The position numbers and the translations under genes were made by a program. From the IMG/VR virus record IMGVR_UViG_3300030294_000676: a stretch of DNA of 64,000 nt. One strand, given 5' to 3'. Position 1 is the first letter of the stretch. Every line of letters begins with the position of its first letter. The notes beneath the pieces were generated by a model. It was not told where the DNA came from, searched no databases, and saw only the letters and a program-made list of their open reading frames with translations. This DNA is from a virus (taxonomy: Duplodnaviria > Heunggongvirae > Uroviricota > Caudoviricetes). Shown here piece by piece: positions 11,719 to 64,000 of this stretch.

Positions 11719-12069
11719 CTATTTGTTTAATAATTGAATTAATGATTCGATTAACATTTCCTTATTATCAAAATCAATTATTTCTTTATCCTTTAAATAA
11801 ATTCCTCCAGAATAATCTGAAAAATATCTTAATTCTAATTCAAAATAATCATCATTTAATAAAAGTTTTTCAATTAACCAATCAATTACTTGTTGCCAAA
11901 GAGGTGCTGAATACCATTCTTTTTTAATATCATTAATATTATTAGTATTCCAATTCACTCCTACATTATGAATATCAAGTTCTGGACAATAAATTCCTAA
12001 ACATTCTTCATCAAATCCTAATCTTTTTAATTGCTTAGCAATCTCATATGTTACAAATTGTTTTTCCAT
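11719..12069 (-). CDS. hypothetical protein (116 aa)
   Basis: ORF track. Confidence 0.55.
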   Translation of the reverse strand: MEKQFVTYEIAKQLKRLGFDEECLGIYCPELDIHNVGVNWNTNNINDIKKEWYSAPLWQQVIDWLIEKLLLNDDYFELELRYFSDYSGGIYLKDKEIIDFDNKEMLIESLIQLLNK

Positions 12070-14481: not shown

Positions 14482-14772
14482 TCATGCTTCTGCTTTTTCT
14501 AATACTTTATCGACCATTGGTTCTTTAATGTATACTTTTTTCAATGATTTCTGTCCTGATTCAAGCATTACTAATGAATCATATAATTCTTTATTAATGA
14601 ATTCACTATATAAAGTATTTGCCGAAGCTACTAATGCATCGCATTGTTCAATAAGTTTTCCAACTTGTATTTTAATTTCATCGTGTGTTAATACAACTTT
14701 TTTTTCTTCAGTAGTTTCTACTGGTTTTGCATTAACATCTTGTCCTAATTTATTCCAGGTTATATTATCCAT
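14482..14772 (-). CDS. hypothetical protein (96 aa)
   Basis: ORF track. Confidence 0.5.
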   Translation of the reverse strand: MDNITWNKLGQDVNAKPVETTEEKKVVLTHDEIKIQVGKLIEQCDALVASANTLYSEFINKELYDSLVMLESGQKSLKKVYIKEPMVDKVLEKAEA

Positions 14773-16630: not shown

Positions 16631-16978
16631 TTAAAAAGGTAATATTATCATTAATTCTTTTCTAATTTCATAACTTAGTTTTTCAAACCAACATATAAAT
16701 TCGTAATTATCTGTATTATTAGTTAATGCAAATAATTCATGATCATAACAACATGAACCAAAACCTCTAACATATCGACCACAAACTTCAATTTGTTGAC
16801 TATATATTAACTGATGTGGTTGATCTGGATCTTGATAACCATATACACAACAAAGTCCATCGGGTTCACTTTTGTAATAACATGTCCAAAATCACCATTC
16901 TGATTGTGGTACATCATCAAATTCTTCTTCAAGTCCAGATTCAGGATCTATATCTAAATTTACTGTTACTAATCTCAT
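16631..16978 (-). CDS. Cys/Trp-rich hypothetical protein with an in-frame TGA (codon 16892..16894). Paralog of 16989..17267
   Basis: Minus-strand ATG at 16976-16978 to TAA at 16631-16633. One internal TGA in ...PQSEW[TGA]FWTCYY.... Both paralogs share a Cys-rich core and end in LPF. Confidence 0.5.
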
Positions 16979-21925: not shown

Positions 21926-21930
21926 ATTTG

Positions 21931-22012
21931 CACATCAGGTAGGATTTGAACCCACGAACCTTTCGGATTAGTTTTGGAGACTAACTACTTTAACCGCTTG
22001 TATACTGACATA
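21931..22012 (-). tRNA. atypical tRNA with anticodon CCA (Trp identity: CCA plus G73) but type-II-like architecture (3-bp D-stem, long variable hairpin)
   Basis: Anticodon stem TTAGT/ACTAA, loop CTCCAAA, variable arm TCCGAAAGGTTC, T-arm GTGGG-TTCAAAT-CCTAC, discriminator G. It is the only CCA-anticodon tRNA found in the array. Confidence 0.6.
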
Positions 22013-22017
22013 TTTGC

Positions 22018-22096
22018 TCCCCCAAGGAGGACTCGAACCCACATGTCTCTCGACATATTCCGAAGAATACGCGTCTGCCAATTACGCCATTGGGGA
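22018..22096 (-). ncRNA. tRNA-like RNA with normal acceptor, D-arm and T-arm, but with two tetraloop hairpins (UUCG and GAGA) in place of an anticodon arm
   Basis: TCCCCAA-TG-GCG...CGC, then TATTC-TTCG-GAATA and ATGTC-GAGA-GACAT, then T-arm GTGGG-TTCGAGT-CCTCC and TTGGGGG. Confidence 0.45.
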
Positions 22097-22102
22097 ATTT
22101 AG

Positions 22103-22191
22103 TGGGGGCGGAGGGCTTCGAACCCCCATGTCTCACGACCGCTATGGTCTAACCTATATTTAGCTGCGGCTACCAATTTCGCCACACCCCC
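22103..22191 (-). tRNA. Leu-type (type II) tRNA-like with non-canonical anticodon loop ATATAGG (apparent anticodon ATA)
   Basis: Acceptor GGGGGTG/CGCCCCC, D-arm GCG-AAATTGGTAGC-CGC, 4-bp anticodon stem CTAA/TTAG, T-arm GGGGG-TTCGAAG-CCCTC. Confidence 0.45.
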
Positions 22192-22356: not shown

Positions 22357-22429
22357 TGGACTCTGTTGGTTTTGATCCAACCTCTCATGCTCTTCAGGCA
22401 TACGCTTTCACCAGATTAGCTTAGAGTCC
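22357..22429 (-). tRNA. tRNA-Phe (anticodon GAA)
   Basis: Acceptor GGACTCT/AGAGTCC, anticodon stem TATGC/GCATG, loop CTGAAGA, T-arm GTTGG-ATCAAAA-CCAAC (non-canonical T-loop). Confidence 0.7.
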
Positions 22430-22434
22430 TTAAA

Positions 22435-23214
22435 TTATATTTTATCCCATTCATCATCAGACAAACTATTTATTTCTTTCTTTGAAGAAGGTATATTAAA
22501 ATGTTTACACCATTTTCTAATAGCATTATCTGATCTATTGTATAATTTACCAATATTAATAAATGTTTCTGTGCGAACTAAAGTTTTTAAATATTCACGA
22601 GTTATACCAAGTTCATCGTAAAAATCATTAGCTATTCGTTTAGCAGAACAACTTAAACATAAACCACTTACAGAAGAACTTGTTATAGTATTACCACAAG
22701 AATTACAATATAATGCATCTATAACTTTATCTTTAACATTTTTACCTTTATAATTATCAGTAAAAGCATGACAGTTTGGACATAATAATTTAAGATTATT
22801 TAATTCATTATTAGTTTTAATACCATCTATGTGGTGTGTTTCTAATGGAATAGGTTCTCCCATTCATTTAGTATTATCACAACATTCACATTTATGTTCT
22901 TTTAGATTATTTTTTAATAATTTATCTCTTAACTTACTTGTTTGTGTATATGCTGAATCTTTACAAAAGATTGTATCTAAAGTGTACACATTCTTAGTTT
23001 CATTTGAAGAATTTCTTTTAAAATGAATTGTGCTAATTTGATGTTTTTTTATCTTAGTTTGAATTGTTTCATAATTACCAGCAGTTAAAGGCAACCCATA
23101 ATATCTACACACATCTGCAAAAGAATAACTTTCTTTTACAATTTTTTCTAAATTTTCTTTTGAATATTTGTTTTCCATAAATTGAACTATTATATTAATA
23201 GTACAAAGATACAA
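22435..23214 (-). CDS. HNH homing endonuclease with an in-frame TGA (22864..22866) at a conserved Trp position. Listed as two ORFs in the track
   Basis: ...KEHKCECCDNTK[TGA]MGEPIPLETHHIDGIKTNNELNNLKLLCPNCH.... The CxxC...HH...N...CPNCH motif spans the TGA. Related HNH proteins have ...EW.GKP... at this point. Confidence 0.65.
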
Positions 23215-23261
23215 AAAATTTTCGAAAGTGCAAAATATATTTAGTTAAATATTGTTAATAG

Positions 23262-23290
23262 CAGAAAGAAACCACCGAAGTGGTTTATTC
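23262..23290 (-). terminator. terminator hairpin with cgaa tetraloop overlapping the stop codon of 23285..23821
   Basis: aaaccac-cgaa-gtggttt (23269..23286), followed on the minus strand by CUUUCUGCUAUU. Confidence 0.5.
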
Positions 23291-23821
23291 AAATAATCCT
23301 GAAGGTGTATTATGAAATTTATTATATAAAACATCTAATGTATAGGATTCATTATCTTTATTAACAAATAATAATTCTTCATCAATTATTGTCGGAGTGT
23401 AATTCTCCTTTAATACTTGTAAAAATGATTTAGTTCTTGTTACTGTGCCCCCAAATCTTGGATCATCTCCATAATTAATGATATAAGTTCCTGACGATGG
23501 TGTCATACTAGCAAGAACATCATTATGAACATATTCTGATCTACCATCATGAGTTATTGTTTGACTAAATTCTTCAAGTAAACCTCTAATCATATCATTA
23601 CTGATATTAAATTCATTAGCTCCTGATATTTTATATTTATCCTCATCATTCATAGATTGACTACTCATAGTAATTGTTTGAACTTTTCCAAACAATCTAC
23701 GCATGCTTTCAACAACTCCAAAAAGAGGTCTTGGACCTCGTCCATTTAATGCATCTTCAAACCATTCTAAAGACTGCATTAATACTTTATCACCTACTTT
23801 ATATCGCTCTGTACCTCTCAT
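23285..23821 (-). CDS. paralog family A member 1 (178 aa)
   Basis: Shares N-terminal RYKVGDKVLMQSLEWFED and C-terminal NESYTLDVLYNKF with the next three genes. Confidence 0.6.
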   Translation of the reverse strand: MRGTERYKVGDKVLMQSLEWFEDALNGRGPRPLFGVVESMRRLFGKVQTITMSSQSMNDEDKYKISGANEFNISNDMIRGLLEEFSQTITHDGRSEYVHNDVLASMTPSSGTYIINYGDDPRFGGTVTRTKSFLQVLKENYTPTIIDEELLFVNKDNESYTLDVLYNKFHNTPSGLFE

Positions 23822-26046: not shown

Positions 26047-26526
26047 TTATCTATTATTAATAATATTACTAATGGTTCCTTTACTACTAATATTATATTT
26101 TTCCATAATTTCTTTATAAGTATGCCCTAAATTTCGGTATGCTTTAATTTCTAAAACTAATTCATCAGAATATTTTTTATTAGCATTAGATGCAATTCTA
26201 ATTCTTTCTTCTTTAGGTTTATCCATCATATTATCACTATATGATCCAATTTCAATATTATCCCAAGAATTATTTAATCCGTTACCATCTAAATGTCTAA
26301 CTACTATATCTTCGTTAAAAATAATTTCTCCAAATTTTTGATATGCTTGTAATCTATGTACTTTAACTGGAATATGTTTTTCATTTAATCTAATATTAAA
26401 TTTTTTATAATTTTTATTATAAATAGTTCCTGTTAAAATTTTTTCTTTAGGATTTAAAATATCACCATTTATAGTTATTTTATATCCTTTTTCAATTGCT
26501 AATAATTCATTTTTACTTCTTTCCAT
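26047..26526 (-). CDS. HNH homing endonuclease (about 159 aa; start moved to an internal Met)
   Basis: VVRHLDGNGLNNSWDNIEIGSYSDN (HNH), with a C-terminal DNA-binding-like tail. It abuts the tRNA-like element at 26531. Confidence 0.65.
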   Translation of the reverse strand: MERSKNELLAIEKGYKITINGDILNPKEKILTGTIYNKNYKKFNIRLNEKHIPVKVHRLQAYQKFGEIIFNEDIVVRHLDGNGLNNSWDNIEIGSYSDNMMDKPKEERIRIASNANKKYSDELVLEIKAYRNLGHTYKEIMEKYNISSKGTISNIINNR

Positions 26527-26530
26527 ATTG

Positions 26531-26607
26531 TACCTACTCCTGGGATTGAACCAGGCTGTCACCAAATAACCTTTCAACAAGATATAAGCTTGAGGGTATA
26601 AGTAGGC
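26531..26607 (-). ncRNA. aberrant tRNA-like (76 nt). Good acceptor and T-arm, but no canonical D-arm; internal hairpin CAAG-CTTATAT-CTTG
   Basis: GCCTACT...AGTAGGT acceptor, T-arm CCTGG-TTCAATC-CCAGG. The middle does not fold as a cloverleaf. Confidence 0.4.
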
Positions 26608-27580
26608 ATAAAAAATCTCTTTATTCACTTTAAGCAGAGTGGAATAATTATATTGACTTAGGTCATAACGAAGGCTTTTCTGCGAACACTAACCATATCA
26701 TAACTACATTTACCAAAACATTCAACCACTGCTATGGTTTATAACCTACGTACTCAACTTTCGTCCTTACCCCTTATTGGGTTGGGTGTCTCCCCCTGGT
26801 TACCGTTTTGCTTCAATTAAAGAGATTTTATTTGTTCAACTTAGAGTAGTCACGGCTACCTCTGATCTCTAAGTCTAATACTAACAGTGGCAAAATGTAG
26901 CTCGACCCTAGTTAGTTTTGTTAATTGGTATGGGCAATAACTTTATAAGTTAAGACTACAACCCCATCTTTGATGGTTTATTCTATCGTAGCTAATAATA
27001 AATAAACCTAGTTGTACTCCAAGCTGGACTTGAACCAGCGACCCTCGGTTTAGAAAACCGATGCTCTATCCACTGAGCTACTGGAGCATTTTAAAAATGA
27101 GTAACGGGAGGGACAATTACACGCATGTTATCCACGGGACTACACCTACATCTTTTCGTTAGGGATATCTGGACTTAATTCCTCATTCTAAGTCAGCATT
27201 GGGTTCCCCTCTTACCTGACTCACCGACCATTCTCGGATGTTACTCATTTAATTTTTAAAAATATTGATGTGCTATTACGCCAAAGGGATTTCAGTCCTT
27301 ACCAGTTACGGGGTGACCTCCAACTTACCTTACCACATTAAATTCCAACTTGAATTGGTTTATCAACGTAGTCTCGTCCCACTCTTTAGATGATTGCTGC
27401 TTCCAAGCCAACATTTCAATATTTTATATTTTAAAAAAGATATACTAATTGCGATTGTATATTATAGAAACATCATCGACGATAATAAATTACCATTCTA
27501 GATATAACATTCACCAATACTTTAAATACGGAGGAATTCCAGAGTCACTTCCCTCATATACAATTAGAGCCCTCTGGACC
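26608..27580 (-). ncRNA. ORF-free, GC-clustered structured region (about 970 nt) embedding tRNA-Arg. Candidate large structured ncRNA (GOLLD/ROOL-like) or intron-like element
   Basis: Stop codons in all six frames. Base composition unlike the flanking AT-rich coding sequence. Long-range complementary pairs, e.g. AAATGAGTAAC...GTTACTCATTT around 27090..27250, and many GC-rich hairpins. Confidence 0.4.
27015..27087 (-). tRNA. tRNA-Arg (anticodon TCT)
   Basis: Anticodon stem TCGGT/ACCGA, loop TTTCTAA, T-arm GCTGG-TTCAAGT-CCAGC. Confidence 0.8.
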
Positions 27581-27795
27581 TAGACTGTTTCTTCTTTTAA
27601 TTTTTTATTCCATTTTAAAAATCCTCTAATATTTAAAACTGTAAATGCTAAATACATTATAACTATTGAAATCATATTCCAGAATAATATTATTCCAAGA
27701 ATACTTCCAATTGCTCCAAGTATGAAGCCAATTATTCTCTTATTACTTATCAAATAATAAGCGTATAAGTTTAAAATCATTAAAATCCAATCCAT
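27580..27795 (-). CDS. small membrane protein (71 aa)
   Basis: ORF track. Two transmembrane helices. Confidence 0.5.
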   Translation of the reverse strand: MDWILMILNLYAYYLISNKRIIGFILGAIGSILGIILFWNMISIVIMYLAFTVLNIRGFLKWNKKLKEETV

Positions 27796-27998
27796 TATCT
27801 ATTTGTTTAAGTTTTAAAAAGGGTTGGGTATATAGTAGAACTTTAATCAACTTATACGTTTATGAATTACACATAATTGCTATCTACCACCCTTTATTTT
27901 AACATCCCTCTCTGCCGCAATCAAGTTTCGGCTGTCTTGTGCTTTGTTTGAACCATTATCAATTGCCGATTTATGGTCACAGAGTTGAGGATATTTAG

Positions 27999-31375: not shown

Positions 31376-32806
31376 TTATTTACTTGTTTTTAAATCGGCT
31401 TCAAGATAACTCTTAGCAATAGTGCGAATTTCTGTCCAATGTTGATCTCTCATTAATTTACCATTACGATAAACTATTTCAAGTTCATCAGCATATCCAT
31501 TATTAATACCATATTGTTCTTTAGAACTTTCGATAGTAATGAATTCTGATCCGGCTTTATGAAGTTTCAAAATACCAGCTTTTGAAGCTTTAGTCATATC
31601 TCCTTTAGGAGATTTACGAATATCTTTTGATTCTCCATCAATTACAGCGAAACAGCATTTTACTGCCCAACGATCTGTATCTCTGGTCAATCCTTCAACA
31701 AGCAAACCACCACCTGAACCAACCGCAAAGTTTTCACAAGACCAACCAGTTTTAATGTATTCTGAATAAATATCAACGATTGAATTTTCATTCATACCAT
31801 CTCCTTGAATTAAGCCTACATTATGATTAATTACTCTGTAATCTACTTCATTTAAGTGATATCCAAAAATATTACCAAGCATTTCAGAATACTTAATCAT
31901 ATTTGTTAACGGAACACCAGAATCCGGACGTAAAATAGTTCTACCTGGACGTGCGATAATACGTTGTTTGATTGCTTCTGAACCAATAACATTTTTAATG
32001 AAATTAGTATCATCATAAGAATCAATAACAATTGATACCATAGCATCGTCACCAGCGCGATCAAATTGAGCATTGACATAATCAAATTCTCCCTGACCAG
32101 GACCAAATACAGTTGCTACTGAGTGTTCAGTTGCCCATACAGATTTTCCTACGGTTGCATCTCCGTAATAGTCTTCAATAAATTCCATTGCTGGAACATT
32201 ATCAGAACCATCAGAAAAGATTAAAGCAGCAGAACCACCTAAACAAGCAGCTTCATGACCTTGAGCACCTCTTAATCCAAAATCATTAACTACATAATCC
32301 AACATAGCGTTGTTAGTAGAGATTTTGAATGATGGAGTAATACCTTTATGAATATTATACATACGAGTAGCAACGGCAACTGGATACCAATTCCACATTA
32401 ACCAAGGTTCGAAGTGACTAACCATTGGTGCAAACCACTCTTCAGTAGCTTCAATTGTATAACAAACATTACCAGTTGGAACAACAGTTCCTTCTTTTAC
32501 AGCTTTGATTTCTAAAGGATAATATCCTAAATCGCGAACTTTTTCCCAAATTTCTTGAGGGAAATAACCAGGGTTACCAAAAGTATTTAAACTTCTACGA
32601 GCACCACGTTCAATATCTTCATTAGTGACAACAGTCATAAAATATTCTTTTATGAAATATTGTATACCATAGAAAACAATATGAGAGTGTTGACCTCCTA
32701 CACGAGGTTCTCCATAAGACATAAGTCTTGTCAATCCCGAAGGACGTTGCGTCCAATGCACAAATTTATATGCATCAGTTGCGGTTGTTGGATGAAATTT
32801 TGGCAT
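31376..32806 (-). CDS. nadV: nicotinamide phosphoribosyltransferase (NadV-type)
   Basis: 476 aa. N-terminal ATDAYKFVHW matches the NAMPT signature (ATDSYK.TH). Size and layout match phage KVP40 NadV. Confidence 0.8.
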   Translation of the reverse strand: MPKFHPTTATDAYKFVHWTQRPSGLTRLMSYGEPRVGGQHSHIVFYGIQYFIKEYFMTVVTNEDIERGARRSLNTFGNPGYFPQEIWEKVRDLGYYPLEIKAVKEGTVVPTGNVCYTIEATEEWFAPMVSHFEPWLMWNWYPVAVATRMYNIHKGITPSFKISTNNAMLDYVVNDFGLRGAQGHEAACLGGSAALIFSDGSDNVPAMEFIEDYYGDATVGKSVWATEHSVATVFGPGQGEFDYVNAQFDRAGDDAMVSIVIDSYDDTNFIKNVIGSEAIKQRIIARPGRTILRPDSGVPLTNMIKYSEMLGNIFGYHLNEVDYRVINHNVGLIQGDGMNENSIVDIYSEYIKTGWSCENFAVGSGGGLLVEGLTRDTDRWAVKCCFAVIDGESKDIRKSPKGDMTKASKAGILKLHKAGSEFITIESSKEQYGINNGYADELEIVYRNGKLMRDQHWTEIRTIAKSYLEADLKTSK

Positions 32807-33253
32807 TTATTTAAATTTATTTTTAAATTCTTCAATACTATTGTATAAAGGAATATTATATTTAGAACATACAATTTCTATATTACCTTTTCTCCAAAAT
32901 CCTTCAGGACAAATTACATGTAACTTTTTAGAAGTTGCATATAAACCTAATTCTAATAAACTAATTGGAGACATAGTTTTAGGATCAAAATACATAATAA
33001 TTATATCAGAAAAATCTAATGCGTGTAATTCCCAAGAAACTTGTTGAAAAAATTCAGGATTATCAAAAGATTGAACCCAAGAACTATCCCAATTATCTCT
33101 ACGAGGATTAAATATATTAAAATCTTTTTCAAAATATTTTGTCATAGTATCTTGCCAATTTTCAGCTTGACCCATTTCAATACTACCTGCTAAAAACATA
33201 GAAGGTTTATGTATATCTCGTTGATTTATATTATTTGGAGCTTTAATTACCAT
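32807..33253 (-). CDS. nucleoside 2-deoxyribosyltransferase-like (PF05014 fold) protein
   Basis: SMFLAGSIEMG (like the NDT N-terminal IYLAGP.F) and DPKTMSPISLLELGLYATSKKLHVICPEG (like D.GTAFEIGYA...GKPV, Glu conserved). Confidence 0.55.
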   Translation of the reverse strand: MVIKAPNNINQRDIHKPSMFLAGSIEMGQAENWQDTMTKYFEKDFNIFNPRRDNWDSSWVQSFDNPEFFQQVSWELHALDFSDIIIMYFDPKTMSPISLLELGLYATSKKLHVICPEGFWRKGNIEIVCSKYNIPLYNSIEEFKNKFK

Positions 33254-33381
33254 TGTTTAAATATGATCGTTAATGTTTTTAATGAATGTACCTAATACAA
33301 TTATTACAACGATACAAATACCTGTAAAAATTATACCTTCTTGTAAATTCATTGTAGTAATTGCGTTAAAGTACGTTTCCA

Positions 33382-33720
33382 TTATAGTTTTATTAATTTA
33401 ATAAATTTTGAAGTGTCTTGTTTAATAACATCGTGTTGAAATCTTTCATAAAATTTAATATCAACTGCTTCAAATTCATGAACAAACCATCCAAATTTTT
33501 GAAGTTTAATAATATCTGCTTTAGGAAACCATTGATATAAACCCTCTAATGATTCAGTAACTGATAACCAGCCTACTAATTTAGGATCAAAATCCATTTC
33601 AAGTTTTGAATTTAAACAAAAATTAAAATCATTATGAATTAATCCTGTAAAAATACCTTTATAATCATACCATAAACCTTGATGGGTATTTATGTTACAT
33701 ACTCTGTAGTATTTTTTCAT
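33382..33720 (-). CDS. hypothetical protein (112 aa)
   Basis: ORF track. Confidence 0.55.
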   Translation of the reverse strand: MKKYYRVCNINTHQGLWYDYKGIFTGLIHNDFNFCLNSKLEMDFDPKLVGWLSVTESLEGLYQWFPKADIIKLQKFGWFVHEFEAVDIKFYERFQHDVIKQDTSKFIKLIKL

Positions 33721-34616
33721 TTTTCAGTATTTTTTAATAAGTCAACTAATAACTTTTTATGTTCTCCAACCAAGATTTTGTCTAGCTCAGGACCGTATGG
33801 GAACCATTTTAAGGCAGCAATATCATCTTGAGGTTGTGGACTACCAAAAGTATATTTACATTTGTATAAATGCGTCATAATTTTAGCATCATGTGAATTC
33901 TTATATCGCCAATCTTCTACACGTTTTGAACAAACGAATTCAAAGTCAGCAAGTTCAAGACCTGTTTCTTCTCTACCTTCACGACGAGCAGCAGCTTCAT
34001 CGGATTCATCAGTAACATCAACAAATCCTCCAACAAAACACCATTCTTTTTCATCAGGTTTTTGACCTAATAGAATTTCACCTTTTTCATTAAAGATTGC
34101 AACATCAACTGTTGAAAATGATCGGGGATATTGTGAAAAAACCGAATAAATTATACCAGCTCTGAAATCAGATGATGCTAATATACGTCCGGCAACTTTC
34201 TTTCTAATATCTGTTGCAGATATATAGACTTCTGGTTCAAGTTCAGTTGTTTTCCAATTTCCAGTATAATATGGAATAAACGAATCTTTACCTCCATAAA
34301 GAGTAACTGTTCCAGATGGAAAAATATCTCTTACTTTAGTACGAATTTGAGTAGACCATACTTCATTGGATTTACAATCAGCAAGTGGTACAATTGAAGA
34401 TATTCTATTTCTAAAATGTGCTTCGATCATAGCTTTACGGGTAATAAAATCCAATGGATTTCTTTGAGTACCCATTGCAGATGTAGTTCCTAAGAATAAA
34501 ATTACCTTTTCGTGGTTTGCAAGAACATGTTCAATTAACTTGATATGTTCAGTATGCAATTCGTGTAGCTGAAATCTCCCGATAACAACTCCAATTTCTG
34601 TTTGAGTTTCGTTCAT
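33717..34616 (-). CDS. natV: bifunctional NMN adenylyltransferase / Nudix hydrolase (NatV/NadM-Nudix type)
   Basis: GVVIGRFQLHELHTEH (nucleotidyltransferase HxGH-type motif) and the Nudix box GGFVDVTDESDEAAARREGREETGLE. Confidence 0.8.
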   Translation of the reverse strand: MNETQTEIGVVIGRFQLHELHTEHIKLIEHVLANHEKVILFLGTTSAMGTQRNPLDFITRKAMIEAHFRNRISSIVPLADCKSNEVWSTQIRTKVRDIFPSGTVTLYGGKDSFIPYYTGNWKTTELEPEVYISATDIRKKVAGRILASSDFRAGIIYSVFSQYPRSFSTVDVAIFNEKGEILLGQKPDEKEWCFVGGFVDVTDESDEAAARREGREETGLELADFEFVCSKRVEDWRYKNSHDAKIMTHLYKCKYTFGSPQPQDDIAALKWFPYGPELDKILVGEHKKLLVDLLKNTEK

Positions 34617-34984
34617 TATGGATTTAAAAATTGTTTTAGCAATTCATCATTTAATATTGTGTCTGAATTATTTGCATAAAATTCCGCAAAATCAAACATT
34701 TGTTGTTTAGTAAATTTAGGAATATTAATAAAATATAATTCTTTAAATTGTTCAAAAGTAATTTCTTCTCCTCTAAGTTGATCAAATATACCTTGTACAA
34801 TATCTGATCCAGATCTCGCCTCAAGATTATTTACTACAATAGAAATATCATTACTATCTGAATGTTCTTTAATGTTAGTTGTGTGTGATCCTACCCATGA
34901 ACAATTATTTTTAAATATTATTTCTTGAACAAATTTAAATTGATCCCTAGTAAGATGATGTATTTTAAAATTTTCGATTATCAT
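34616..34984 (-). CDS. paralog family B member 1 (122 aa)
   Basis: MIIENFKIHHL...VQEIIF ... C-terminal ...LNDELLKQFLNP. One of five tandem paralogs. Confidence 0.6.
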   Translation of the reverse strand: MIIENFKIHHLTRDQFKFVQEIIFKNNCSWVGSHTTNIKEHSDSNDISIVVNNLEARSGSDIVQGIFDQLRGEEITFEQFKELYFINIPKFTKQQMFDFAEFYANNSDTILNDELLKQFLNP

Positions 34985-35352
34985 AATTTTAAGAAGTCAG
35001 TTAATACATCATCTGGAGATGATGCGCCAACTATATTGTTAGTGTAATATTCAGCAAATGCAAGGATTTTCTCTCTAGATATACGTAAAGTATTAGCATA
35101 TTTTTCTTTAAATTGATCATATGTTAATTCTTCTCCTTCAAGACCATCAAATGTACTTTGGGTAACTACTACACCGGATCTTAACATACCTTTAGATGTC
35201 ATACATAAAGTAATAGTATTACTAGGACTAAACATTCTTAAATCTTTATCTAAGCTGCTTCCCCATCCACCACCATCGCGAAATACCATATTTTGAACAA
35301 TTTTAGATTGTTCATTATCAAGATGATATATTTTAAAAGGTTTTATTTCCAT
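34981..35352 (-). CDS. paralog family B member 2 (123 aa)
   Basis: MEIKPFKIYHL...VQNMVF. Confidence 0.6.
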   Translation of the reverse strand: MEIKPFKIYHLDNEQSKIVQNMVFRDGGGWGSSLDKDLRMFSPSNTITLCMTSKGMLRSGVVVTQSTFDGLEGEELTYDQFKEKYANTLRISREKILAFAEYYTNNIVGASSPDDVLTDFLKL

Positions 35353-36486: not shown

Positions 36487-36893
<407 letters not shown>

Positions 36894-54237: not shown

Positions 54238-55344
54238 TTACTGAATGATATGAGGTACAAAATACGACATGTTGTCAGTAATTCTTGACGATGTTTCACG
54301 GATACCAAAACCACAAGACTCTCCACCAATAACCCACGATCCTAAGATCGGATACATTCCATCAAAAGACGGTATATCAACAAGTTCTTGGAAGATAAAT
54401 CCTTCTTCTCCATATTCACCTTCAGTTTCTTCAAGAACTTCACCATTTTTTACAAGGGTTACGTTAGCACCTTCTCTTGAGAATATTGGTTTTTTACAAT
54501 AGTTACCAGGAAGCGGTTGATCAGAAGCTTTTAATACGTATGGAGAATTAGGAAACAATTTGGCTACAATAGTAAGTAAATACTTGTTGCTCATAACGGC
54601 TTTCCAAAGAGGTTCGATGAATGTTGTTGCACATACAGGAATAGTTTTTCCAAACTCTTCGTTGAACATCCATTCATATGGATACAATTTAAAAAGAACA
54701 TCAAGGTTATTACCATCAGCGTCAGTAAACAATTCATCATTCGAATGAATTTCTTCAACATCCATCAACGTTACATTCAATCCAGCTTCAGCAGCAGTTG
54801 ATAGTATGTATGCAGTGGTAGTATGATCTTCAAGATTTTCTTTACCACATGCAAAATAATACATATCCGATTGATATTGTGTATGAATGTCTTTCCAACT
54901 TTGAATAAGGGCTTCATGAATTGAATTGAACTGATCATTACCAGGATATACTTCTTCTTTCCACATCCATTGTACAATGGCTGCTTCAAATAGAGATGTC
55001 GGGGTATCAGCATTAAATTCAAGACATTTTGGAACACCATTGATAAATGCAAAATCAAAGCGACCATACAGTGACAATTCATCACTATTCCACGAGTCAA
55101 CGATTACTGGAATCATTTCAGCGGGGATATGTAATTTGTCCCAAAGATTATTATCAATAACATGTTGTACGGCAGCACAATACATTTGATAACATTCAAC
55201 AGTTGCTTTTTCAATTTCTTCAATTTCTTTTGATGAAAAAGAATACACGGCATTTTCGAGCCAATAGTTTTCATTGAATTCGAAACCTAAATCAGATAAT
55301 TTTTGTTTATAATCTGATCTAGGATTTATTTTAAGTCTAATCAT
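54238..55344 (-). CDS. glutathionylspermidine synthase-like (pre-ATP-grasp) protein
   Basis: GRFDFAFINGVPKCLEFNADTPTSLFEAAI matches the GSP-synthetase family signature (RFDF...L.EYNADTPT). Confidence 0.7.
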   Translation of the reverse strand: MIRLKINPRSDYKQKLSDLGFEFNENYWLENAVYSFSSKEIEEIEKATVECYQMYCAAVQHVIDNNLWDKLHIPAEMIPVIVDSWNSDELSLYGRFDFAFINGVPKCLEFNADTPTSLFEAAIVQWMWKEEVYPGNDQFNSIHEALIQSWKDIHTQYQSDMYYFACGKENLEDHTTTAYILSTAAEAGLNVTLMDVEEIHSNDELFTDADGNNLDVLFKLYPYEWMFNEEFGKTIPVCATTFIEPLWKAVMSNKYLLTIVAKLFPNSPYVLKASDQPLPGNYCKKPIFSREGANVTLVKNGEVLEETEGEYGEEGFIFQELVDIPSFDGMYPILGSWVIGGESCGFGIRETSSRITDNMSYFVPHIIQ

Positions 55345-55420
55345 TTTATGTTTTGTAAATGTTTTTGTTAAATAATTGAGGGATTTAACAATGTAAATCC
55401 CTCATTTTCTTTATCGAAAA

Positions 55421-58676: not shown

Positions 58677-59087
58677 TTATTTATATCGAGGTAAATCTTG
58701 TTTAATTTTACTATATTCATTTCCTCCAATCATTAATCCATTTTTGTAAGCATGAATTTTATTTTCAGAATCAGTACACCATTCAAGATTTACTAATGAA
58801 TTATTTAATTTATTTCCATCTATATGATTTACTTGTAAATTTTCAAAGATTGGTCTAAATGTTAACATTACTATTCTATGAACATGTAATGTTTTTATTC
58901 CATTTCTATTTTCAGCAGTAAATCTTAAATATCCAAATTTATTAGGAGATAATTTTAATATTTTCCCTTTTAATTTTCTTCCAATTTTAGATATTCTATT
59001 TAAACTTCTTATTCTTCCTAAATTAGAAACTTGATATATTTCTTCATATTCAGGAATGTCTTTTCAGATTTCTTCTATTTCTTGCAT
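58677..59087 (-). CDS. NUMOD4 + HNH_3 homing endonuclease with an in-frame TGA (59064..59066) at the universally conserved Trp. The ORF track shows only the C-terminal 63 aa
   Basis: Minus-strand ATG at 59085-59087 gives MQEIEEI[TGA]KDIPEYEEIYQVSNLGRIRSLNRISKIGRKLKGKILKLSPNKFGYLRFTAENRNGIKTLHVHRIVMLTFRPIFENLQVNHIDGNKLNNSLVNLEWCTDSENKIHA.... Matches the NUMOD4 consensus EIWKDIPGYEGLYQVSNLGRVRSL with the TGA in the W position. Confidence 0.65.
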
Positions 59088-63873: not shown

Positions 63874-64000
63874 TTATTTTAAGAGAATTTTAGCAAATGA
63901 TGTATCATTCTTCATTTTCTCAATGAGTTCTTTAGAAGACATTTTCTTGGCTTCATCAAGTAATTTATTTTGTTGATCGACAACACCTAAGCTTGTTTTA
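63874..64000 (-). CDS. C-terminal end of a gene that continues beyond the window (partial)
   Basis: Open minus-strand frame ...KMSSKELIEKMKNDTSFAKILLK* with TAA at 63874..63876. Confidence 0.4.
   Translation of the reverse strand, partial: KTSLGVVDQQNKLLDEAKKMSSKELIEKMKNDTSFAKILLK

Follow-up and report, generated by a model that had tools for sequence, protein, structure and literature searches.

Introduction

In the Mycoplasmatota (genetic code 4), UGA is read as tryptophan throughout the genome by a tRNA-Trp with a UCA anticodon, and RF2 has been lost. Recoding can also be partial; partial TGA recoding with a phage-encoded suppressor tRNA is already known, and what we describe here involves no new mechanism. 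[quoted passage not shown] 2021; PMC7886860). In the Agate phages, a group I intron homing endonuclease situated in an early gene is preferentially TGA-recoded for Trp, and it was proposed that this recoding delays production of the endonuclease until late infection (Borges et al.; 10.1101/2021.08.26.457843).

Here we describe a phage homing-endonuclease gene, HNH1, that lies in a 64,000-nucleotide stretch of DNA (IMG/VR record IMGVR_UViG_3300030294_000676). We refer to the whole of this stretch as the window. An earlier sequence-only reading of the window had noticed a TGA at a conserved Trp position of HNH1, and had offered two explanations for it: either UGA is decoded as Trp in this gene, or the gene is a very recent pseudogene created by a single G-to-A change. 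We think it probable that the window is a standard-looking early and accessory block, and that it belongs to a large phage (at least 175 kb) with a packaging module of crAss-like type and with TGA partly reassigned to Trp.

This phage shares with the crAss-like phages (PMC7886860) a crAss-like TerL, a large, tRNA-rich genome and a suppressor tRNA(UCA). In both cases recoding is concentrated in the late block and the rest of the genome looks standard, with mobile endonuclease ORFs also carrying TGA. Unlike those of the crAss-like study, the present contigs do not come from its human-gut datasets (PMC7886860), and, unlike in crAss-like phages, many of the window genes resemble genes of non-crAss Cellulophaga phages; the likeness to the crAss-like groups is one of TerL similarity (29-44% identity). 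With the Agate phages, our phage has in common a homing endonuclease in an early region with an in-frame TGA at a Trp position, and the same proposed consequence, namely that no endonuclease would be made until the suppressor acts late. Unlike in the Agate phages, the HNH endonucleases here appear to be free-standing and have a single TGA each, and the lineage and habitat differ. As under code 4 of the Mycoplasmatota, a tRNA with the anticodon UCA would translate UGA as Trp, but in the phage the reassignment is partial and block-wise, the window having 99% TGG among its Trp codons and 13 terminal TGAs. Finally, HNH1 matches free-standing NUMOD4 + HNH_3 phage homing endonucleases in its domain order, its size and its invariant catalytic residues, but its invariant N-terminal Trp is encoded by TGA rather than TGG. 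Recoding of this kind has been seen mainly in gut phages; the present case would add a large phage found in many metagenomes.

Results and discussion

A single TGA interrupts HNH1 at an invariant tryptophan

HNH1 (positions 58677-59087, minus strand) is a NUMOD4 + HNH_3 homing-endonuclease gene of 136 codons, one of which is an in-frame TGA. Its frame opens with an ATG at 59087-59085, runs through six sense codons to the TGA at 59066-59064 (codon 8), and continues through 128 open codons to a TAA at 58679-58677. The sequence-only reading had started from a 63-aa HNH ORF and argued that its upstream extension restores a full-length NUMOD4 + HNH_3 gene; the frame from the ATG at 59087 to the TAA at 58677 bears this out. 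The list of ORFs contains just the 63-aa fragment because there is no ATG, GTG or TTG in the 65 codons past the TGA. The encoded peptide, MQEIEEI*KDIPEYEEIYQVSNLGRIRSL, has the N-terminus that was originally reported, and across the TGA with W inserted it reads EEIWKDIPEYEEIYQVSNLGR.

When the TGA is read as W, both domains are recognized above their Pfam gathering scores, which was one of the checks that had been suggested for this gene. NUMOD4 (PF07463) matches over profile positions 1-45 (2.2e-17, 63.4 bits; cut-off 23.4), and HNH_3 (PF13392) matches with 42.1 bits (6.9e-11; cut-off 24.8). Removal of the first eight residues lowers the NUMOD4 score to 52.4 bits. In an alignment with 35-36 homologues, the TGA falls exactly at W8, the invariant NUMOD4 Trp, as had been claimed, and the remainder of the gene is intact and in frame. 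Residues H70, N87, H88, N100 and H112, which are invariant across 36 aligned homologues, are all present in HNH1. The TGA at codon 8 is therefore the sole defect of the gene. Group I and group II introns were not detected by Rfam models on the flanks of HNH1, which appears from its sequence context to be free-standing rather than intron-borne.

We found the same gene, TGA included and without a single difference, in seven contigs from seven samples, and the flanks of these copies differ by 0-2 bases per 10 kb. Because seven contigs assembled independently from seven samples carry the identical codon, the TGA is not an assembly error. The exact 136-aa protein with W is present in a public protein collection, and all seven source contigs of these entries carry TGA. 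Since these contigs match the window across the gene, the 136-aa entries represent code-4 calls from a near-clonal phage, and not independent TGG alleles. Public calls of HNH1 conflict with each other (L024 versus L025): one JGI assembly has the 63-aa product of the standard code, and ENA, Logan and short JGI contigs have the 136-aa product with W (code 4).

For the three closest HNH1 homologues with readable DNA (79, 76 and 75% identity), the codon in question is TGG, and none of them contains an in-frame TGA. Comparison with orthologues had been proposed in the sequence-only reading, with TGG expected if the codon stands for Trp and with orthologues likewise truncated if HNH1 is a simple pseudogene. 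TGG is what the closest homologues have, and none of these three is truncated. TGG in orthologues does not, in itself, separate recoding from a recent pseudogene; recoding elsewhere in the genome does.

The pseudogene alternative holds that HNH1 is a selfish gene, expressed early and dispensable, in which TGG became a functional stop through one G-to-A change, and that full-length enzyme is no longer made in useful quantity. Homing endonuclease genes commonly decay as part of the homing cycle, which speaks for this alternative. TGG in the closest homologues indicates that the change is recent, and the identity of all HNH1 copies would, under this alternative, reflect that there has been no time for further damage. 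Because all of the recovered copies are identical, they hold no evolutionary record of purifying selection after the TGA arose. We nevertheless regard a pseudogene as unlikely on the strength of the evidence from other parts of the phage that is presented below.

The window is largely written in the standard code

Almost all genes of the window (30.8% G+C) lie on the minus strand. Under the standard code, the combined length of ORFs of 100 aa or more equals 84% of the window. Its Trp codons consist of 277 TGG and 3 TGA (99% TGG). There are 13 window genes that end in TGA, each of which has a TAA or TAG 0-30 codons further on. The second stop is at most 11 codons away in 12 of the 13 and at +30 in the remaining one, and we found nothing distinctive in the distance from terminal TGA to next stop among these genes. 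In three of them on the minus strand (614-862, 14482-14772 and 34981-35352), TAA or TAG follows the terminal TGA directly.

The existence of 13 genes ending in TGA means that suppression cannot be complete while those genes are translated. The closeness of the second stops, in turn, means that late readthrough would add little to their products (0-30 residues). Reading the whole window in code 4 was rejected on the basis of the ORF coverage under the standard code (84%), the 277 TGG codons and the 13 terminal TGAs. The otherwise standard code of the window, with its three TGA-Trp codons against 277 TGG and its 13 terminal TGAs, counts in favor of HNH1 being a pseudogene, and we counted the 13 terminal TGAs against recoding as an explanation.

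The RNA genes of the window comprise 24 tRNA genes and a tmRNA. None of the tRNA genes of the window has the anticodon UCA. The only tRNA-Trp(CCA) in the window (21930-22011, minus strand; 82 nt) reads UGG, and its structure is odd: the variable arm is long (CCGAAAGG hairpin), and the D stem has 3 bp. The tRNA-Trp of Cellulophaga phage phi17:2 is normal, at 73 nt.

The sequence-only reading had pointed to this tRNA(CCA) as a possible reader of the HNH1 UGA. Changes in the D arm of E. coli tRNA-Trp allow it to read UGA, and the long variable arm, 82-nt length and 3-bp D stem of the phage tRNA could be taken to mean that it is a Hirsh-type UGA suppressor, which by near-cognate, low-level readthrough would yield a trickle of full-length HNH1. 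We consider such a scenario very unlikely. The same genome encodes a dedicated tRNA with the cognate UCA anticodon (see below), TGA makes up a share of the late-block Trp codons that is beyond near-cognate leakage, and the odd shape of tRNA(CCA) is not needed to explain the data.

Two further odd tRNA-like genes are located beside tRNA-Trp(CCA). In the first (22016-22097, minus strand), acceptor, D and T arms accompany a long variable arm. A C(UUCG)G tetraloop closes the 7-bp stem of its anticodon arm and leaves it without an anticodon; ARAGORN assigns the gene a 2-base anticodon, and it scores 28.2 bits against the Rfam tRNA model, for which the threshold is 29. The second (22102-22191, minus strand; 90 nt) is of type II, and is called tRNA-Tyr(AUA) by ARAGORN; its anticodon stem contains a mismatch, and the Rfam tRNA model does not recover the gene. 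Both were rejected as candidate suppressors, given the UUCG tetraloop of the first and the anticodon AUA of the second.

Two other genes in the window have TGA at a conserved tryptophan

The sequence-only reading had claimed that the same pattern recurs in the window, and had leaned toward decoding on that account. We found two such genes. The first, HNH2 (22435-23178, minus strand; 247 codons including one in-frame TGA), is a second HNH endonuclease gene that belongs to a different family from HNH1. Alignment with homologues places its TGA (22864-22866) at W105, in the motif CECCxNTxW-MGEPIPLExHHIDG. This is the W of KCECCxNTxW-xGxPIPLExHHIDG, a Trp whose conservation across 24 homologues is at least 90%, and the two closest homologues (79% and 75% identity) have TGG at the position. 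An ATG lies immediately 3' of the TGA. The second is a small ORF inside the tRNA island (16631-16978, minus strand; 115 codons including one in-frame TGA), in which the TGA (16892-16894) aligns with the second W of a conserved SEWWFW motif. This ORF has only two detectable homologues; both have W at the TGA position, and in one of them (P0241) the two Trp codons of the motif are TGG TGG. A third HNH_3 gene (26047-26628, minus strand), which serves as a comparison, has no in-frame TGA, and both of its Trp codons are TGG.

Every stop codon in the window and in 10 kb of each flank (~83 kb) was checked for an extended open frame that continues unshifted to either side of it. The scan returned three interrupted genes, HNH1, HNH2 and the small ORF, all of them within the window and all interrupted by TGA. 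In the same ~83 kb, there were no genes broken by TAA, by TAG or by a frameshift. The joint chance that three random nonsense mutations would all be TGG to TGA is 2e-5 if rates are equal and 0.018 if only transitions are allowed. That all three interrupted genes have TGG changed to TGA at a conserved Trp, with no TAA, TAG or indel among them, argues against the pseudogene alternative even at the transitions-only figure. TGA-Trp codons are enriched in the HNH genes of the window, where they account for 2 of 7 Trp codons, versus 1 of 273 elsewhere (p = 0.0016). The base that follows the TGA in the three genes is A, A and T, which is not distinctive.

The history of HNH2 complicates matters. In two variant strains (L034 and L035) that are 99.3-99.6% identical to positions 22400-23300 of the window, the TGA of HNH2 is kept, and a 1-nt deletion in an A7 run upstream of it causes a frameshift. 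HNH2 also has three coding SNPs in these strains, all of them non-synonymous. HNH2 is thus decaying in at least one lineage, and a TGA in a mobile gene of the early block is no proof of function. The frameshift on top of the TGA also counts on the side of HNH1 being a pseudogene.

A linked contig encodes a tRNA(UCA)

We next looked beyond the window in other assemblies. Searches with the terminase of phi17:2 as a route to the structural genes (protein, contig and metagenome searches) led to other phages only. An exact-pattern search for the start of HNH1 in IMG/VR gave no matches, the matching IMG/VR contig stopping inside the neighboring gene, which encodes an 885-aa protein. It was a search with this 885-aa protein that identified the contig, UViG_3300028734_000023 (64,836 bp; L075), which is 100% identical to the window and its flank over 10,478 nt. 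We followed this contig outward from window position 64000. The phage recurs across many public metagenomes with 0-2 differences per 10 kb.

This contig encodes a tRNA with the anticodon UCA (L075 positions 11924-11997, ~11 kb past the window end), which is oriented opposite to the window genes. Its 74 nt fold into a class I cloverleaf, which scores 62.9 bits against the Rfam tRNA model and has A1-U72 as its first pair and G73 as its discriminator. A1-U72 and G73 are identity features of bacterial tRNA-Trp. ARAGORN labels it tRNA-SeC, an assignment that we rejected because its acceptor stem has 7 bp and its variable region is short; its single Rfam match is to the general tRNA model, RF00005. 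Comparison by overall sequence identity singled out no particular tRNA as the closest relative of tRNA(UCA). We conclude that this canonical tRNA(UCA), and not tRNA(CCA) as had been suggested, is the likely reader of the HNH1 UGA.

The presence of tRNA(UCA) also bears on whether HNH1 is a pseudogene. Where such a tRNA is present, a change from TGG to TGA is close to synonymous, and the phage not only has its own tRNA(UCA) but also uses TGA for Trp in essential genes, as described in the next section.

One gene near this tRNA is less straightforward. A PhoH-like ATPase gene (L075 15138-15920, ~78.2-79.0 kb in window numbering) has one in-frame TGA (L075 15543), which sits in mid-domain between Walker A and Walker B. 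Translated with W at the TGA, the gene matches PF02562 (2.9e-57) in one stretch across the TGA. In distant homologues (at most 39% identity), this TGA aligns with Asp or His and not with Trp, an observation that we counted against recoding as an explanation.

The terminase/portal block is readable only with TGA as a sense codon

In-frame TGAs become numerous in UViG_3300028734_000023 from ~20 kb past the window end. We read 20 kb of this block, which includes the terminase gene. TerL is crAss-like and has 702 codons, 10 of them TGA and 4 TGG. The portal-like gene has 731 codons, 2 of them TGA, and gave no match to Pfam. A GIY-YIG endonuclease in the block has 4 TGA and no TGG, and several further ORFs are also affected. 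Across a 10-kb recoded block, the TGA:TGG ratio is 31:7, so that ~80% of Trp codons are TGA, as opposed to 3:277 in the window (Fisher's test, p = 7e-33). ORFs of 100 aa or more cover 49% of the recoded block under code 11 and 89% under code 4.

A full-length alignment of TerL with a homologue in the standard code is obtained only if TGA counts as sense. With W at these codons, the protein forms a one-piece alignment over 96% of its length, at 43.7% identity, with the standard-code TerL MT835470.1 from an unclassified gut phage. Against annotated Crassvirales TerL proteins (tblastn), identity is 27-30% over 84-89% of the protein. Opposite the 10 TGAs of TerL, MT835470.1 has W, W, F, Y, Y, V, Y, F, W and R, and the residues opposite the four TGG codons of TerL form a very similar pattern.

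Because the phage has a tRNA(UCA), and because its terminase/portal block can be read in no other way, it decodes TGA as a sense codon. Judged from these alignments and from the identity features of the tRNA, TGA in this phage almost certainly stands for Trp specifically. Other readings of the codon, as glycine (code 25) or as selenocysteine, or as a product of sequencing or assembly error, strike us as highly improbable, more so than any other alternative considered here. Code 25 phages do exist, and ARAGORN labels tRNA(UCA) as tRNA-SeC. The tRNA is, on the other hand, a 74-nt class I molecule (62.9 bits) that has neither the long variable arm nor the extended acceptor stem of a selenocysteine tRNA; the Trp at the TGA position is invariant among homologues of HNH1, at least 90% conserved among those of HNH2 and found in both homologues of the small ORF; and the TGAs of TerL lie opposite Trp or aromatic residues. 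An artefact sits badly with the seven assemblies that agree on the codon.

Of the two explanations first offered for HNH1, decoding of UGA as Trp is favored over a G-to-A pseudogene by the recurrence in three genes, by tRNA(UCA) and by the recoded terminase/portal block. The presence in this phage of a UGA-reading tRNA and of packaging genes full of in-frame TGAs makes it most likely that the HNH1 stop codon is read as tryptophan. Translation of HNH1 through the TGA is something we infer from sequence, and the protein is a putative enzyme whose cleavage and homing activities are predicted.

Possible consequences of TGA in early-block genes

A working model is that HNH1 expression would depend on the supply of tRNA(UCA). 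In the absence of a suppressor tRNA, translation of HNH1 would end after 7 residues. The arrival of tRNA(UCA) would allow UGA to be read as Trp and the full 136-residue HNH1 to be made. This dependence on UGA would be expected to delay or limit production of the endonuclease. The terminase/portal block is, from its gene content, probably expressed late; there TGA serves as the main Trp codon, and in the window nearly all Trp codons are TGG, with TGA still a terminator.

There are two ways to view the three TGAs of the window. First, the in-frame TGAs of HNH1, HNH2 and the small ORF might be selected translational timers rather than the result of drift, which we put forward as a tentative idea, less likely than not. 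If they are timers, selfish or toxic HNH nucleases (2 of the 3 HNH genes) and a small protein would be held untranslated until tRNA(UCA) accumulates. Such sentinel codons would mark genes that are needed late though they reside in early transcription units. Second, the three TGAs could be tolerated drift in dispensable genes, made near-neutral by the suppressor. Because HNH2 decays in variant strains, they could indeed be mere drift. Among the 277 TGG codons of the window block, the three TGA exceptions include two homing endonuclease genes, and the phage offers a clean natural test of whether stop-codon recoding gates the timing of particular proteins.

Regardless of which is the case, the partial recoding has practical consequences for annotation. 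Standard-code gene calling mis-annotates this phage, reporting HNH1 as a 63-aa fragment and the terminase block in pieces. Reading with TGA in mind repairs the annotations of both.

Other features of the window

The phage-encoded tmRNA (36487-36893, minus strand) has the predicted tag peptide GNKTISFARTAFMAAA, and is worth noting in a phage that also promotes readthrough of stop codons. A 71-aa ORF in the region 27088-27798 (minus strand) matches only positions 1-69 of the 175 in an NMN-transporter (PnuC) profile; 3' of it are ~490 nt without an ORF, between two tRNA genes. This region may be what remains of a gene, or it may encode an RNA that is not recognized.

The window also encodes NAD-salvage enzymes, a glutathionylspermidine synthase, an OmpA-domain protein and AAA ATPases. 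An auxiliary metabolism cluster (31376-34643 and 54238-55401, minus strand) includes a nicotinamide phosphoribosyltransferase, a cytidylyltransferase/Nudix fusion and the glutathionylspermidine synthase, the fusion being likely an NMN adenylyltransferase-Nudix enzyme.

Several window proteins are closest to those of the non-crAss Cellulophaga phages phi17:2 and phi4:1 and of a 462-kb uncultured phage. A 724-aa window protein, for instance, has 59% identity to its counterpart in phi17:2 and 63% identity to that of the 462-kb uncultured phage. The genome is mosaic, in that the terminase on the same contig is crAss-like.
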